DNA of 62,976 nucleotides, counting the filler, from Folioceros fuciformis (Eukaryota): the NCBI GenBank assembly GCA_049999805.1. It is 8 parts of 8 records of this genome, joined end to end, with 100 filler letters (N's around TTAATTAATTAA, not from the genome) between each part and the next. Parts side by side here need not be neighbours in the genome. Positions count along the whole stretch, not along the records: positions 1 to 22,724 come from JBNGIO010001919.1; 7 more parts are not named here. One strand, 5' to 3'. Position 1 is the stretch's first letter, and each line of letters begins with the position of its first letter. This document shows, one piece after another, positions 2,301 to 57,447 of the stretch. A model generated the notes under the pieces. It searched no databases. It was not told the origin of the DNA and saw nothing but the letters and a program-made list of their open reading frames with translations. The position numbers and the translations under genes are program-made.

Positions 2301-3027
2301 ACTGTTGTGCCTGTCGGTGAATAACAGTCCTCTGCCTCCTGCTGGCAAGCATTTGCGACCGTTGCTACTGCTGCGCTCTACAATCTCGAAGGAGTAAGAA
2401 AGTCATGGACGCGCCACACCGAATGTCAGCTCCGCCAACCAGAAAGAGGGAGAAGCAATCTCGCGGCAAAGGGTAGCATGAAGAATGCCGACTGCTTTCC
2501 GTGGCCACGAATTCGACAACGCTCAGCGTCCAGAATTTGTGAACGCAGCAGTTGCTGGCGGAGCAGAGAGTGGAAACAGGAGCCAAGCAATAGGGGGAAG
2601 ACCTTGGCGGAAAGAGCGGGATAGCCTGCAGTTTCCGACGCAAGTAGGCGGCAGCAAGTGGGTGGGAGCCGCGAGGGATACGGGACAGGTGGTTGGTGGC
2701 CACGAGCCTGGGTCTATCCGCTGCCGCGGGGTCTGGGGTGGTTGTGGCTCGGGCAGGAATAAGGCAGATTCCGGCCCAATGTGGAGACGGATATTGAAAC
2801 GGATTACAGGCCGGATTAGTGGCTGGGAAATCCCGATCGGGTAGAATACGAGCATCATCTGAAGTGGGTGGTGCAGGGAGCAGCTGTGCTGATGAGGCCT
2901 GCCGCGGCGAGCAACTTGTCACCAGCAGGCTTCAAGGGACCACAGCTGCGGGCGCGGCGTACCTGTTTATGAGCGTTTCCCCAGTGTATGCTGGGAGCTG
3001 GCCAGCTGCGTATCCAGGAAAGCAGCT

Positions 3028-5080
3028 ATGGCAGCCGGAATGTGTAGCATGTCGGGCCTCGCTCTCTCCGCCGACGTCCGTAGGCTCTCGCCTGCCCTCC
3101 CCGTCCGCGGGGTTGATCCGCTGCGTCTCGCAGGCCCCCGCAGGCTCCATGTAGTGTCCGCTTCTGCGTCTGCGAACTCGCAGACCGCTGGAGAGGAGCT
3201 GAAGCTGGAGGCACAGCCACAACAGAGCTATGCCGCCTCTGGTGCGCCTGCGGCCGCGCCCTTCTGCCTCCCTCTGCTTGCGTGCTGTTGGTAATCGCAG
3301 GGTGGTTGGTTGGCGTGTCTGATCGAATCGAGTGGGCTGGTTGGTGGCATTGTGTTCTGCAGTCCGGGAGACTATGCCCTTCGCTTCTGCTTCCACTTCC
3401 GTGGAGGCGCCTCCTCCCTCAGCGCCTGTAGAGGGCTCAGGGAAGTCGCCTGTCTTCCTGTACGTGGCGGCGGCCTTGGCAGCTGTGGGGATCTTCGCTG
3501 CTCTTAAGGCCCGTGGAGGCGCTGCCCCGGCCCCCGTTGCACCGGTTGCCCCACCGGCTCCCCTCTCCAAGCTGCAGAAGCCCCGCCGGGATCTCGCCCC
3601 TGCGACTTTGAAGAAGATTTCCACTGACTTCTCTGTGGCCGTTGTGGACAACAAGTTCGTGAAGAGCGTGGGCTCAGCTTTGGCTGGTCTCGGCTTCACC
3701 AAGTATGAGCTTTCACTCTGAGGCGTCTTGGAAAATGGCTGGATTGATCCCGGCACGGATTGCTAACAGTCATTCCCAACGGTTTTCGTTGATGCAGGGA
3801 GAACACCATTGCCTTGGTTAGTACCTGCAGGGATGAGATCACAAGACCACTCGTCGGGCTTGTGGAAGAGGTGGGTAGCCTTAGGATCTTTGTTACTCGT
3901 CTTGCGCTTTGTTTTCCTCGTTCCCGTCTTTAAACGTGCCTGCGCCTATCAGATCTACGGTGACACATTCAACATCGCTGGTCTTGGTGGTGCCATCGTC
4001 TGTGGCAAAGTCGGGTTCAAGGCTGGCATTGGTCACGCACCAGATGCCAAGCAGGACCGAGAGAAGTGTGAGTGGCCTCTCGTCGTTTCTTTCAAGATGG
4101 CGACCTAGCTTCAACAGCTGAACTGTTGTCGCACACTCCTAAGCTCTCACTTTCTAGCATCTGACCCTGAGGTTGATTTTCACTTCTATGCCTATGCAGA
4201 CGTGTTTTTCGCCTTCCCTCACGTTGGTGTTGATGAGCAAGGTAAGCCCTGCTCGAACCGCACTCCCATTTTCGGTTTAGGTTGCACCTTAGTGGAATCG
4301 TACCGGGAACAGCAGTACCCTTCCTAATTGCACTGACGTAGTACTACAGGTAACGAGGGCCTTGTAAAGAGAGAAGGCCAAGCCAAGCCATCCACTGCCT
4401 GTGCTGCTCTCCTTGCAGTCAAGGGTGAGATTGAGCGGGGAGCCTCCCCCCATTCTGGACCTCTGCCCCTCGATGACATGGAGTTCGGCCTTCTCAAGGC
4501 CAAGCTCCTGAACTGGGTCAGTCAGTGCTCTTTCTTGTCTGCATGTGTAATGCAAACTTTGGGTAAACCTTCGCTCACTTCTTAACCCCGCAGTATCCGC
4601 AGAGCGCTGCAAAGAACAAGACCAAAGTGAGCCTTATTGACGTGACAAAGGCAGCTGAACAGGTAAAGTCCTTTCTTGTTCTGTGAGCTGTCCGTTTTCA
4701 GAACTACTTCAGACATTCTGACTGCCATTGGATTGTAGGTCATTAGGGAGGATATCGATGATTTGATCTCCAAAGTTGTAGACCCGAAGAAGGCCGACTA
4801 TGCCGTGGTAACAGGCATTCAGATCCACGCTGCGTGCCCCTGCGGTACCGGCGCCTGGACACCTGAGCATCTTGTCGATTACATTGCCCCTGGTGAGTCT
4901 TGGTGGGCACGGTCCCTTCTGTCAACATTCGCAGTGCCCTGCAAAAGTCACATTGGATTGATCTCTCTTGTTCCAGGTACTATGTATGCTGTCGTAAATG
5001 GACAACGATATCTCTTGAAGACAGATGGCAAGAATTTCTACACAGAGAAGGCCAGCGACCCTGTCCTTACACCCGCTTAG
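3028..5080 (+). CDS. LCIB: LCIB-family (limiting-CO2-inducible B, theta-type carbonic anhydrase fold) plastid protein, 425 aa, 9 exons
   Basis: Exons 3028-3241, 3363-3702, 3798-3870, 3953-4067, 4200-4241, 4350-4516, 4594-4662, 4739-4892 and 4977-5080 are all GT-AG and splice to a 1278-nt open frame. LCIB motifs: IALVSTCRDE, FNIAGLGG, GFKAGIGHAP, YVFFAFPH, STACAAL, VDPKKADYAVVTGIQIH, YAVVNG. The putative Cys/His/Cys Zn ligands are present, and the N-terminus is Ser/Ala/Arg-rich like a transit peptide. Confidence 0.92.
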
Positions 5081-5690
5081 TCTGACATCCTGACTCGACG
5101 ATACGCCCAAAAGGATAGAGCACTTGCGAAACTTTGGCTAGACCATTATACAGATGTGTGTAAAATCGTTTAAAATTTACGTTCAATGTAATTGAGTTAT
5201 TTTCTATACTTATACATTTTGTAAATTAACCGGGAAGGAAAAGTTGAATACTATCTTGATGGTCAATATGTGCGAAAATGGTACCCATACAATAAGTATC
5301 TCTGACCTGTTCACAACAGCTACCGAATTTGCAGCTGCCAATCATATCGCGCAGAAGACATCTTCTATAGAATAGTCAACAATCTCCAACCACAAAGAAA
5401 CAAAATATTATTCCCTACTCTTATAAGTGTAAGGACGAAGAAAAGACTCCTTCCACAAGTTACTTCCTAGGTGACAGACACCTCTCCATAAGCGGATTTC
5501 ACATGCCTTCTTTTTCAGGGACGACTTGGTCGTCTGGGCCACACGAACGAGACAAAAGTCAGCACCGCGGCAAACTCAATGAGGGCTCCACGTGAAATAA
5601 TGAGATGTGACTCAGACTTACCAACATTAAAAGGGTATTTCGAACAGCTCGTGCAGGAAGACGGGAGTAAAGAAAACGGTCTTGACAAAG

Positions 5691-7069
5691 CTACATTCTG
5701 GGAGCTGTAAGACAAACAGCACGATAAAAATTGAATTTCCATGGAAAACAAATAATATATCCACATACAAGTGGAAAACGAATACCCTGCAGAGGCCACG
5801 TAGGACTCACCTCCTCCAATAGCCGCTTCTGGTAGCCGTTCAATGGAATACCGGTGTTGAGTGATGTACATGATGGGCACACCTGGAATCTGGATGGAAC
5901 AGATGTATACGGGGTATGTGTCACTGGACGTATACCAAGGCCAATAGCTGATCAAAGGAGCTTCCACGCGACTCGAAAGAGAGAGTTCAAACCTTGCGTA
6001 TACGTCGTTTCAGATCCCGATCACATGTTGCAACAATGTAGCACTTGTGCTGCAAGGAGAAGCTTTTGTCACGACATGAACACTTCTGCAGAAATGGCTG
6101 CAATCCACTTAACTCAAAAGCGGTATCCCTTTGCCCACCTGATTGACTCGATGGACAAGGCAATCATCGGCATATGTTCCCTTGTGAGAACAGGGCAACC
6201 TGTTGAACGCTGGATTCTTGGCAATTCTGCAGGCGGTGAAGATCTTAGCAACCAGTCCGAGGAAGGAAGGAAACGTCCTGCACGTCTGAAAAGAAATGAG
6301 GGTTTTACTTGAGCGCCACCCGATACTTATCGCCAAGCTTTTCCAGTTCTGCCATGACACAGTCTGTGATGCAGGGAGTGCCTGAAGATAAACAAACATA
6401 CACAGGGTGTGAAGCCATCATATCCAAACGGTGGCTTAAAATGTGTCACGGAAGACATGTTTCAAAAGCAATCAAATTCACTCCTTACACTTTGCATAAA
6501 GACAATCCATCATGGCCTTCTCCAAGTCCAGCTGCAAACCACGGAGACCTCTTAGTAAGAAGAGACGTTGCAAAGCAAGATTCCAAGGTATACTCACAGA
6601 CACAGGAAAAGAGGCAGGAAGCCAGCGTACCTTGTTCTGAATGGAGAAATTGATGAAGTTAGTGTCCACCAGAACCTGATAAGGCGGCCCTAACGCAGTG
6701 TTGTACTTGAAAAACAAGGCAGATGAGGTATTAGGGCTGACAACACACCATAGACATGAGTAAGTAGCGTGATCGCTCTCGGTCAGGGCGAACGGTAGTA
6801 GAGGCATCTCACAATCCTTCGAGAGAAACGAGCTTCGGTGATAAGCTACTCACACATTCCGTGGTAGCTTTTCCTTCGGAGACGGCTTCTTTGCAGGATT
6901 GAGGACTTCTTCTTTGTACCTGGACAAGCATCCTATGAATACCACCAAAACTATCTTCAACTCGATTGTGAGGGCAGACATCACGGGCACGTACGTACTT
7001 TTTTATGGCCTTGGGAGTGATCATGCGCTTCACCTCCGCGAACTTCCGCGTCTTCTTCGCCTTGCCCAT
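5691..7069 (-). CDS. FCF1: rRNA-processing PIN nuclease FCF1/UTP24, multi-exon
   Basis: Exon peptides MGKAKKTRKFAEVKRMI, FFKYNTALGPPYQVLVDTNFINFSIQNK, LDLEKAMMDCLYAK, HKGTYADDCLV and PGVPIMYITQHRYSIERLPEA; final exon APRM* ends at 5691. Confidence 0.93.
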
Positions 7070-7689
7070 GTTTGAAGGTCAGGCTGGCAGCTTTCCGGCG
7101 GCGGTGAACAACAAGCCGAAAATGGATTCTAAGCTACGTGCATAGTCGTTAAAATAAAGTCGAGATTTCTCTACTCGTTACAGATCCTAAATTTATACGG
7201 AAACTCGTTTTAATACTATACAATACTAAAATTGACACTAAAATTAGTTTTAGTAGTTACTACTTTCATGCTATGACGACGAAAAATTGTCGCCCTCCTT
7301 GACCGTGTGGCTTTCGGTGGTGCAAAGGTGGTTGGTGTTGCCTCCATCGTTGGTGTTTACAATTGCAGTTTTTCCATCTTCCGCTGTTCCTGACAAATAT
7401 TGTCAACATGAGGTCAGTTTTGGATGCCGGATGCCACTGTTGAGCGCTCGGGTATGTTCAGAAAGGAAGTTGTGAAGCCACAAACGGCCTTTTCTCATCA
7501 GAGATAGTGAACCATCTATGAGGAAGCCTTAACAATTGACACTTCAAGAGCAAGTCGATTTGATTGGTGGTAAGGTGGTTGAAAATAGTAGCTACTTTGA
7601 TGTCCTCAAGGTTTGTAAGGATGATGCCCCGACTTCCAAAACAAAATGAGCATTTTAGGCGAACTTTTGAAGGAGGAGGACTGAAGGAG

Positions 7690-22724: not shown

Positions 22725-22824
22725 NNNNNNNNNNNNNNNNNNNNNNNNNNNNNNNNNNNNNNNNNNNNTTAATTAATTAANNNNNNNNNNNNNNNNNNNN
22801 NNNNNNNNNNNNNNNNNNNNNNNN
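22725..22824. other. Artificial contig linker (44N-TTAATTAATTAA-44N)
   Basis: The same 100-bp structure occurs seven times and has stop codons in all six frames. Confidence 0.97.
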
Positions 22825-25735: not shown

Positions 25736-25835
25736 NNNNNNNNNNNNNNNNNNNNNNNNNNNNNNNNNNNNNNNNNNNNTTAATTAATTAANNNNNNNNN
25801 NNNNNNNNNNNNNNNNNNNNNNNNNNNNNNNNNNN
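25736..25835. other. Artificial contig linker
   Basis: N-run with central TTAATTAATTAA. Confidence 0.97.
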
Positions 25836-30150: not shown

Positions 30151-30250
30151 NNNNNNNNNNNNNNNNNNNNNNNNNNNNNNNNNNNNNNNNNNNNTTAATT
30201 AATTAANNNNNNNNNNNNNNNNNNNNNNNNNNNNNNNNNNNNNNNNNNNN
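30151..30250. other. Artificial contig linker
   Basis: N-run with central TTAATTAATTAA. Confidence 0.97.
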
Positions 30251-42605: not shown

Positions 42606-42705
42606 NNNNNNNNNNNNNNNNNNNNNNNNNNNNNNNNNNNNNNNNNNNNTTAATTAATTAANNNNNNNNNNNNNNNNNNNNNNNNNNNNNNNNNNNNNNN
42701 NNNNN
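42606..42705. other. Artificial contig linker
   Basis: N-run with central TTAATTAATTAA. Confidence 0.97.
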
Positions 42706-48881: not shown

Positions 48882-48981
48882 NNNNNNNNNNNNNNNNNNN
48901 NNNNNNNNNNNNNNNNNNNNNNNNNTTAATTAATTAANNNNNNNNNNNNNNNNNNNNNNNNNNNNNNNNNNNNNNNNNNNN
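48882..48981. other. Artificial contig linker
   Basis: N-run with central TTAATTAATTAA. Confidence 0.97.
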
Positions 48982-51728: not shown

Positions 51729-51828
51729 NNNNNNNNNNNNNNNNNNNNNNNNNNNNNNNNNNNNNNNNNNNNTTAATTAATTAANNNNNNNNNNNNNNNN
51801 NNNNNNNNNNNNNNNNNNNNNNNNNNNN
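51729..51828. other. Artificial contig linker
   Basis: N-run with central TTAATTAATTAA. Confidence 0.97.
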
Positions 51829-57347: not shown

Positions 57348-57447
57348 NNNNNNNNNNNNNNNNNNNNNNNNNNNNNNNNNNNNNNNNNNNNTTAATTAAT
57401 TAANNNNNNNNNNNNNNNNNNNNNNNNNNNNNNNNNNNNNNNNNNNN
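57348..57447. other. Artificial contig linker
   Basis: N-run with central TTAATTAATTAA. Confidence 0.97.

Follow-up and report, generated by a model that had tools for sequence, protein, structure and literature searches.

The LCIB gene of Folioceros fuciformis is, judged from its sequence, a gene for a hornwort-type LCIB β-carbonic anhydrase, in which the catalytic core is preceded by a predicted membrane anchor and a Pro/Ala linker. In comparison with the Nothoceros orthologue, the aligned sequences indicate that the anchor is conserved as strongly as the catalytic core, while its flanks drift. The hydrophobic helix is probably a signal anchor similar to that of Tic40, tethering LCIB to the inner envelope of the chloroplast with the enzyme on the stromal side. 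An LCIB permanently tethered to a plastid membrane had been proposed in a sequence-only reading; this interpretation is partly supported, with membrane insertion and the ‘permanent’ nature of the tether standing as predictions only.

Gene model and family identity

The coding part of the gene is divided into nine exons (Table 1), with GT..AG at the borders of all nine on sequence inspection. A spliced contig of 1363 nt from run X1, the single matching run (its RNA type, ‘RNA?’, is a guess), spans 3096-5242 with one mismatch, and all eight introns are spliced out in it. Exon 2 is retained in the contig (joints 3240>3362 and 3702>3798). At exon 7 the contig joins 4516 to 4603 rather than to 4594, using the acceptor 9 nt downstream; the transcript-supported protein therefore has 422 residues, and not the 425 given in the sequence-only reading, and its translation is free of stops. 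Because the contig begins only at 3096, the start codon at 3028 is a putative one, taken as the first in-frame ATG of an open frame at 2896-3294. The contig differs from the genome by G>A at 3509, an Ala to Thr change within Lys-Ala-Arg that leaves the charges unaffected. Only one LCIB was found by tblastn with P0002 within the window (the whole stretch of DNA that was analysed, 62,976 nt). The GT..AG introns of the spliced contig lie on the + strand, and an antisense open frame of 276 aa (2932-3762) was for that reason set aside as a side effect of the GC-rich coding sequence.

Table 1. Features of the F. fuciformis LCIB gene, in positions of the window.
Feature	Position	Strand	Remarks
LCIB gene, coding part	3028..5080	+	nine exons, product 422 aa
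Exons 1-5	3028-3241, 3363-3702, 3798-3870, 3953-4067, 4200-4241	+	
Exons 6-9	4350-4516, 4603-4662, 4739-4892, 4977-5080	+	stop TAG 5078-5080
Exon 7, alternative acceptor	exon start 4594 instead of 4603	+	
Exon 1 presequence	3028..3241	+	Ser/Ala/Arg-rich, transit-peptide-like
Pre-anchor region, MPFASASTSVEAPPPSAPVEGSGKSP	3374..3451	+	Ser/Pro-rich
Hydrophobic segment, VFLYVAAALAAVGIFAAL	3452..3505	+	predicted membrane anchor; aa 102-119, 18 residues
Lys-Ala-Arg	3506..3514	+	basic C-terminal flank of anchor; adjoins VFLYVAAALAAVGIFAAL
Pro/Ala linker, GGAAPAPVAPVAPPAP	3515..3562	+	16 residues compared with Nothoceros
Exon 2 end, first LCIB core helices (…ISTDFSVAVVDNKFVKSVGSALAGLGFT)	3563..3702	+	P0001 model and alignment
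C-R-D-E motif	3826..3837	+	β-carbonic-anhydrase active site; exon 3

The identity of the product as an LCIB, as first read from the sequence, holds. In an exon-wise hmmscan the profile PF18599 (LCIB_C_CA) was matched by exons 3, 4, 6 and 8, with scores of 18.1, 32.2, 19.2 and 28.3 bits, respectively; at the cut-off of 25 bits only exons 4 and 8 pass singly. The four matches are collinear and cover profile positions 23-215. In alignment A1 the C-R-D-E motif falls on C196, R197, D198 and E199, columns with hardly any variation, and the stretches STCRDEI (exon 3), GIGHAPD (exon 4) and STACAAL (exon 6) lie at the nearly invariant C196/R197/D198, H238 and C285. From structural work, we take these columns to hold the Cys/His/Cys metal ligands and the Asp-Arg pair of the catalytic site. 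The Nothoceros orthologue matches PDB entries 5k5w (E 2.8e-51) and 5b5x (6.3e-50) of Chlamydomonas LCIB / LCIC. These proteins have the same β-carbonic-anhydrase core, with the C-R-D-E, His and A-C columns conserved. Like the LCIB of A. agrestis, the F. fuciformis protein is a hornwort LCIB with conserved active-site residues, and such residues have been described as kept in hornwort LCIBs (Li et al. 2020).

The A. agrestis protein is encoded by a single-copy gene and located at the chloroplast envelope, according to the main texts of the Robison et al. and Ruaud et al. preprints. LCIB::mVenus overlaps TIC40::mScarlet at the envelope and LCIB is seen as a thin ring beneath it, in data that come from A. 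agrestis and from C-terminal fusions, with a strong promoter in one study. The reported location at a chloroplast membrane, to which the sequence-only reading had referred, is correct on these grounds, and so is the lack of LCIC: hornworts carry one LCIB/LCIC homologue, without LCIC, in both preprints. The Chlamydomonas proteins, as told in the hornwort preprints, are soluble proteins that combine into an LCIB-LCIC complex and relocate around the pyrenoid; in contrast, the hornwort type has one gene, no LCIC, and a predicted anchor and linker. In the reaction-diffusion modelling of a hornwort preprint, with the thylakoid stacks as a diffusion barrier, LCIB performs best at the chloroplast envelope. 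The main texts of the two preprints mention no helix, anchor, transmembrane or hydrophobic segment of LCIB, and the mechanism of attachment is therefore unstated in them.

The N-terminal segment and its conservation

The translation of 3365-3700 reads ...GSGKSP-VFLYVAAALAAVGIFAAL-KAR-GGAAPAPVAPVAPPAP-LSKLQKPRR..., and it bears out the uninterrupted 18-residue hydrophobic stretch that had been noticed in exon 2, which is also transcribed. The same is true of the Pro/Ala linker ahead of the core, present in the translation and in the X1 contig. The charged flanks are there as well, with the difference that the upstream Lys, part of a Lys-Ser-Pro, does not adjoin the segment but lies some 2-3 residues before it; Lys-Ala-Arg follows directly. 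Upstream, exon 1 would encode a chloroplast transit peptide with its cleavage site, and the exon 1 region of the aligned algal relatives contains an F-x-G-L-R/K motif. The segment lies about 55 residues beyond the point where the presequence probably ends. In the pre-anchor region of the hornwort, Closterium and Coleochaete proteins, a Pro-rich run preceded by an F/L-A-S-V/I-S motif can be aligned. Pro/Ala-rich stretches are found C-terminal to the anchor in the relatives too, although their length and sequence vary, and the product of 3563..3702 can be matched in the alignment to the F-P…L..GF block that is conserved in the LCIB family.

The hydrophobicity of the segment is moderate. The Kyte-Doolittle mean over 19 residues (KD19) peaks at 2.28 on VFLYVAAALAAVGIFAAL, within an uncharged run of 20 residues, and this peak is the sole window above 1.6 in the whole protein. 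It is unusual when compared with the shuffled N-terminus: 2.28 was attained in 119 of 20000 shuffles of the N-terminal 145 residues. A value of 1.6 was attained in 4995/20000, and since a quarter of the shuffles of this Ala-rich N-terminus reach it, the 1.6 threshold, and any ‘TM’ label based on it, is lenient.

Conservation was analysed in a FastTree phylogeny of 160 LCIB domains, where F. fuciformis LCIB falls within a clade of 27 sequences that has a sister clade of 47. Sequences with a long N-terminus, defined by 60 or more residues ahead of the core, number 19 in the home clade and 28 in the sister, and a segment was counted if KD19 was >=1.6 within 150 residues upstream of the core. By this measure the hydrophobic segment is present in 15 of the 19 long-N-terminus LCIBs of the home clade, and in 4 of the 28 of the sister, mainly chlorophyte clade. 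A sixteenth member of the home clade, P0012 of Closterium, has an aligned segment with a KD19 of 1.51; P0046 and two Coleochaete-type paralogues (P0175 and P0005) lack it. The carriers include Nothoceros, Klebsormidium, Closterium, Mesotaenium and Coleochaete, and the segments of the relatives align at one position, between the Pro-rich run and a K/KK flank. Between F. fuciformis and Nothoceros, identity is 13/22 over the anchor with KAR and 178/284 over the core, as against 10/45 in the presequence, 16/55 in the pre-anchor region and 4/16 in the linker.

The charges around the segment are asymmetric. Averaged over the 15 clade members, K+R number 1.67 in the 15-residue flank C-terminal to the segment and 0.20 in the N-terminal one; the C flank is the richer in 12 of the 15 and equal in the other 3, and in F. 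fuciformis the basic residues are 1 and 2, respectively. The more basic flank of a membrane segment lies on the inner side of the membrane (the positive-inside rule). With the basic residues C-terminal to the anchor, this rule points to an N-out/C-in arrangement that would place the enzyme on the stromal side. An anchor with the enzyme in the stroma agrees both with the conservation of the segment and with this distribution of charges.

Candidate mechanism and alternative readings

The layout of the LCIB precursor is similar to that of Tic40, which has a transit peptide, a Ser/Pro-rich region, one N-terminal transmembrane helix and a large stromal domain (PMC2667645). [quoted passage not shown] In F. 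fuciformis LCIB the Ser/Pro-rich ASASTSVEAPPPSAPVEGSGKSP directly precedes the helix, and Pro-rich runs are aligned in the relatives. The likeness concerns the way of working and carries no claim of homology.

As to insertion into the membrane, topology, the route of import and the way in which the helix determines the location, we infer the following. The precursor would consist, in order, of a transit-like presequence, the Ser/Pro-rich stretch, the helix at aa 102-119, Lys-Ala-Arg, a Pro/Ala linker of about 16-27 residues, and the core. After import the helix would be kept in the mature protein and hold it, as a signal anchor, in the inner envelope of the chloroplast. A short acidic N-tail would project into the intermembrane space, and everything after the helix, from basic flank through linker to enzyme, would be on the stromal side (a Tic40-like topology). 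The linker would keep the enzyme no farther than roughly 10 nm from the membrane, where CO2 entering across the envelope could be converted into bicarbonate at the stromal face, without an LCIC partner. A conserved, built-in anchor of this kind would supply a mechanism for the envelope location of hornwort LCIB.

The segment may instead not span the membrane, being a peripheral or interfacial helix, or an element for oligomerisation or partner binding, with envelope association achieved through another protein or lipid contact; we regard this as unlikely, though it is the alternative that fares best. The segment is moderately hydrophobic and rich in Ala and Gly, and its insertion-scale sum over 19 residues is positive in 14/15 clade members (+0.6 for F. 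fuciformis), on a translocon scale that is ER-derived and was summed plainly without position weighting. The AlphaFold2 models point both ways: that of the exon-2 protein P0001 speaks for the anchor in placing a helix (V30-K48) exactly on the segment, though with a pLDDT of only about 50, followed by coil at residues 49-78 (the linker) and helices 79-88 and 90-108 (the core), and that of the Nothoceros orthologue has no helix in residues 100-120, at a pLDDT of 48-56. Support from these models is weak and mixed, with low confidence over the N-terminal region in both. In addition, identity of 13/22 exceeds what a bare anchor needs and, like the 2-5 small-xxx-small motifs per segment, would suit helix-helix contacts; the motifs, however, would also be explained by packing of helices inside the membrane. 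Against a non-spanning segment stand the KD19 peak over its long uncharged run, the charge asymmetry typical of anchors, and the retention of hydrophobicity at one aligned position in distant lineages.

Thylakoid targeting, with the segment acting either as a cleaved lumenal signal peptide (the second half of a bipartite presequence) or as a thylakoid-membrane anchor, appears improbable. Lumenal presequences do share the layout of a stromal-targeting region followed by a hydrophobic core, and diatom LCIB-family enzymes have been reported in the thylakoid lumen. F. fuciformis also has one Lys shortly ahead of the core, and Ala would occupy position -1 of a putative cleavage site (ALKA, then R). 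In 12 of the 15 clade members, however, the 15 residues preceding the core are free of Lys and Arg, and a twin-Arg is present in none. The core is followed directly by K, KK or RKK, with no polar c-region; the starts of the C-flanks in the clade include KAR, KFR, GKQ, NKQ, RKK, DKL, SKV, SKP, KKV and KKL. No shared A-x-A was apparent by eye in the 15 C-flanks, and Nothoceros has ALKF, then R. The fluorescence of the A. agrestis protein, as presented in the preprint main texts, is a peripheral ring overlapping TIC40, with no thylakoid pattern.

Arrest of the helix in the inner envelope during import, which would keep the N-terminal end on the stromal side and strand the catalytic domain in the intermembrane space, is the least probable reading. 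Such stop-transfer is an accepted insertion route of some inner-envelope proteins, discussed for ARC6 (PMC2667645), and confocal overlap with TIC40 cannot distinguish the faces of the membrane. This orientation, however, would turn the basic residues towards the intermembrane space, contrary to the positive-inside rule. The prolines before or at the start of the helix resemble the re-insertion class and not the stop-transfer class (PMC2667645), and the trapping of bicarbonate that the published spatial model demands would fail if the carbonic anhydrase lay outside the alkaline stroma.

Distribution and possible origin of the layout

The LCIBs of Klebsormidium, Closterium, Mesotaenium and Coleochaete share the arrangement seen here, with a hydrophobic segment, basic flank, Pro/Ala-rich spacer and core. 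The anchor therefore looks, from the aligned sequences, to be an old design, ancestral in streptophytes and no hornwort invention, which goes against the earlier suggestion of a simpler design in hornworts. The position of F. fuciformis LCIB as sister to that of Nothoceros has 95-97% support; the SH-like support (FastTree) for the clade that holds it is only 87%, and streptophyte monophyly was not resolved in the IQ-TREE run. Searches of a 5.8-billion-protein collection returned one relative with the exon 8 query and no longer protein with the exon 2 query, where the low complexity of the Pro/Ala stretch probably swamped the word index. In the literature searched, no localisation of the anchored LCIBs of streptophyte and other green algae was found.

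It is possible, and we suggest it tentatively, that an LCIB tethered to the envelope by this conserved helix predates the split of Klebsormidium from the land-plant line, that hornworts inherited it as the half of a passive carbon-concentrating chassis that traps CO2, and that the first ~140 residues, from the presequence through the Ser/Pro run, helix and basic flank to the Pro/Ala linker, constitute a self-contained, portable module. The occurrence of this layout also in Klebsormidium, Zygnematophyceae and Coleochaete bears on whether the chassis predates land plants. If the first ~140 residues suffice, they would offer a means from the plant lineage of positioning a carbonic anhydrase of the stroma along the envelope with neither LCIC nor a starch sheath, and, were the ancestral reading true, the module could serve in crops to attach enzymes to the inner envelope on its stromal face.

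The anchored algal LCIBs are unannotated or are models named ‘unnamed protein product’. The spacer between segment and core in the anchored proteins ranges from 16 to 107 residues. The LCIBs of Mesostigma and of a pedinophyte have the same anchored layout, but with two tandem cores.

Gene model and transcript evidence

Seven identical spacers, each of 44 N, TTAATTAATTAA (with stops in all six frames) and 44 N, interrupt the window; it therefore consists of eight separate pieces, with LCIB in the first (1-22724), and gene order across the spacers is meaningless. A Pfam scan, exon by exon, gave collinear PF18599 (LCIB_C_CA) matches across exons 3, 4, 6 and 8, of which exons 4 and 8 individually exceed the 25-bit cut-off. 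The core is clearly akin to the LCIB and LCIC structures already solved, the Nothoceros orthologue matching 5k5w at E 2.8e-51 and 5b5x at E 6.3e-50. Within the open frame the earliest in-phase ATG lies at 3028, upstream of the reach of the transcript contig. Translation of exon 2 confirms the 18-residue hydrophobic stretch of the sequence-only reading, with KAR directly after it as described; the upstream Lys, which had been described as flanking, is two residues away rather than adjacent.

Features of the LCIB locus and of the LCIB N-terminus
Feature	Position	Strand	Description	Source
LCIB gene, nine exons	3028-5080	+	GT..AG at every intron	
Exon 2	3363-3702	+	...MPFASASTSVEAPPPSAPVEGSGKSP-VFLYVAAALAAVGIFAAL-KAR-GGAAPAPVAPVAPPAP-LSKLQKPRR..., then first conserved LCIB-core block	translation
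Neighbour gene, tail to tail with LCIB	about 5100-7100	-	intron-containing; Fcf1 (PF04900) match 6109-6417; start MGKAKKTRKF near 7078	
Spacers	22725-22824, 25736-25835, 30151-30250, 42606-42705, 48882-48981, 51729-51828, 57348-57447			
Presequence			F-x-G-L-R/K motif in algae	N-terminal alignment
Pre-anchor			F/L-A-S-V/I-S motif, then Pro-rich run	N-terminal alignment
Hydrophobic segment	3452-3505 (aa 102-119)	+	often P-x-V/L-V/L-G-A-G...	N-terminal alignment
Basic flank after segment			K, KK or RKK	N-terminal alignment
Pro/Ala-rich spacer			segment-to-core distance 16-107 residues	N-terminal alignment

Transcript evidence comes from a single public run (X1), whose kind, RNA, is a guess. An X1 contig of 1363 nt lies on 3096-5242 with one mismatch, G>A at 3509, which is an allele or strain difference; it changes Lys-Ala-Arg directly after the hydrophobic segment to Lys-Thr-Arg and leaves the charges the same. 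All eight introns are spliced out at the predicted borders, the exon 7 acceptor apart, and exon 2, the skipping of which had been named as a refutation, is included. An isoform that skips exon 2 may exist, because contigs drop rare variants. Exon 6 is joined to 4603, not 4594: the window has tandem acceptors at 4585-4605 (CCGCAG/TATCCGCAG/, slashes marking the sites), and the contig uses the downstream one. Tyr-Pro-Gln is thereby lost, so that the supported protein has 422 aa, three fewer than the 425 first modelled; both acceptors are in frame, and alternative isoforms differing by 3 aa are possible. A second X1 contig runs on the minus strand from 5271, at the neighbour gene.

Conservation of the N-terminal segment

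Exon 8 of the window found one close relative, a 435-aa protein (P0002) of the hornwort Nothoceros aenigmaticus, 75% identical over the exon and of the same layout. A full HMMER search with P0002 against 1.84 billion representatives gave 1165 matching proteins (E<=0.001); the best 150 of these were taken, and 22 more came from a word-index search (E<=1e-20). Of 195 proteins, the window's spliced model among them, 194 yielded a total of 206 LCIB cores of at least 120 profile positions. In the N-terminal alignment the relatives share one order of parts: presequence, pre-anchor, hydrophobic segment, basic flank, spacer and core. The conservation check suggested earlier comes out positively, with the segment aligned in relatives and the anchor plus KAR identical to Nothoceros at 13/22 positions, beside 178/284 in the core, 10/45 in the presequence, 16/55 in the pre-anchor and 4/16 in the linker. 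Conservation of the anchor thus equals that of the enzyme, and the flanks of the anchor diverge, which argues for a function rather than a chance Ala-rich run.

A segment with a 19-residue Kyte-Doolittle mean (KD19) of at least 1.6 was found within 150 residues upstream of the core in 50 of the 206 domains. Once near-identical rows and domains covering fewer than 180 profile positions had been set aside (196 to 160 rows), FastTree placed the window in a clade of 27 rows (87% SH-like support), of which 15 carry such a segment, four have a long N-terminus without it and eight are N-terminally short. The sister clade of 47 mostly chlorophyte-type rows has 4, 24 and 19, respectively; among judgeable rows the segment is thus present in 15/19 versus 4/28. 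One of the four exceptions, P0012 (Closterium), does have a segment at the aligned position, with a KD of 1.51; in the other three, P0175 and P0005 (Coleochaete type) and P0046, it is truly absent. Carriers include Klebsormidium nitens, several Closterium strains, Mesotaenium (Mesen1) and Coleochaete scutata (P0183). IQ-TREE (44 rows) gave (Klebsormidium,(Diphasiastrum,(window,Nothoceros))) with SH-aLRT of 85/91/97% and a Zygnematophyceae-plus-Coleochaete clade at 99%, leaving the deeper order open. As judged from these sequences, anchored LCIB is not a hornwort novelty, and the form is probably old, because the cassette is also present in streptophyte algae.

Topology and membrane location

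The KD19 of the segment is 2.28, the sole window above 1.6 within the protein. Shuffling the 145 N-terminal residues reached 2.28 in 119 of 20000 trials and 1.6 in 4995 of 20000; the peak is unusual, though the conventional threshold is lenient in such Ala-rich sequence. On a translocon insertion scale, with ER-derived values summed without position weighting, the window scores +0.6 kcal/mol and 14/15 relatives are positive, so that by this scale the hydrophobicity is moderate, not strong. AlphaFold2 models lend weak and mixed support to an anchor helix. For the Nothoceros protein (35 aligned sequences) the core has pLDDT >85 from about residue 150, and residues 100-120 show no secondary structure (pLDDT 48-56); for window exon 2 (20 aligned sequences) a helix spans exactly V30-K48, the hydrophobic stretch plus Lys (pLDDT ~50), followed by coil to residue 78 and two core helices.

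We lean towards a built-in, Tic40-like signal anchor with a flexible tether: the helix would retain LCIB in the chloroplast inner envelope, and the linker would hold the enzyme at the stromal face. The window has a Ser/Pro-rich run ahead of the helix, the same arrangement as described for Tic40, a single-pass inner-envelope protein, in PMC2667645. Across 15 clade members the mean K+R count of the 15-residue flanks is 0.20 N-terminally and 1.67 C-terminally (C > N in 12/15, C = N in 3/15); the predicted topology puts the C-terminal enzyme on the stromal side, because of the basic C flank and the positive-inside rule. A helix of this moderate hydrophobicity may fail to span the membrane, though that is unlikely, and another membrane or another face, taken jointly, is a little less probable still. 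A stop-transfer helix, which would leave the enzyme in the intermembrane space, is less favoured: the charge asymmetry points the other way, and bicarbonate made there would not be trapped in the alkaline stroma. Lumenal signal peptides have a basic n-region and, behind the hydrophobic core, a polar c-region closed by A-x-A; the odds that the segment is a thylakoid signal of this kind are low, since 12/15 clade members lack basic residues ahead of that core, the 15 share no A-x-A after it, and the window's ALKA/R is not conserved (ALKF/R in Nothoceros).

The earlier remark that hornwort LCIB lies at the chloroplast membrane is borne out by the preprint text of Robison et al. (10.1101/2024.06.26.600872), in which A. 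agrestis LCIB::mVenus is seen at the margin of the chloroplast, where it overlaps TIC40::mScarlet, and "is indeed membrane-bound"; the authors add that LCIC is absent from hornworts and that modelling favours an envelope position. The preprint text of Ruaud et al. (10.1101/2024.06.24.596764) describes a thin ring beneath the envelope, with a single LCIB/LCIC homologue. Neither main text uses "transmembrane" of LCIB (0 and 2 occurrences of the word, respectively), nor "anchor", "helix" or "hydrophobic". No LCIB anchor is described in the portions covered of the literature on LCIB with transmembrane and chloroplast envelope, TIC40, Anthoceros and transmembrane, or Klebsormidium, though the point may already have been noted elsewhere in print. 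If real, the signal anchor would provide a mechanism for the location published for A. agrestis: an incremental step that can be tested directly, useful for engineering and of evolutionary interest.

Variant LCIB proteins among the relatives

Sister paralogues with and without the segment (P0183 versus P0175 in Coleochaete scutata; P0008 versus P0005) suggest anchored and soluble forms within one alga; P0175 has a repeated AAPKKDTPVIVDYRIKRAAPAA unit in place of the segment. Zygnematophyceae and Coleochaete LCIBs (P0007, P0178, P0180, P0177, P0175, P0005) have a Cys cluster (e.g. C-x-C-x-x-C) after the F-x-G-L-R motif and ahead of the pre-anchor, which is missing in both hornwort proteins. Outside the clade, P0003 (Mesostigma, 866 aa) and P0004 (Pedinophyceae, 774 aa) each have two tandem cores behind a single anchor-like N-terminal segment. 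In two Closterium models, P0012 (1092 aa) and P0182 (490 aa), an anchored LCIB is continuous with a multi-pass region of PF01384, the phosphate-transporter family; each model may be a genuine fusion or two adjacent genes run together. One 67-Mb contig of the lycophyte Diphasiastrum complanatum carries several LCIB models of 256-269 aa without N-terminal extension (P0174, P0010, P0191-P0193), on which the titles and abstract openings covered of the lycophyte LCIB literature say nothing; they group with the hornwort pair in both trees (93%, 91%).
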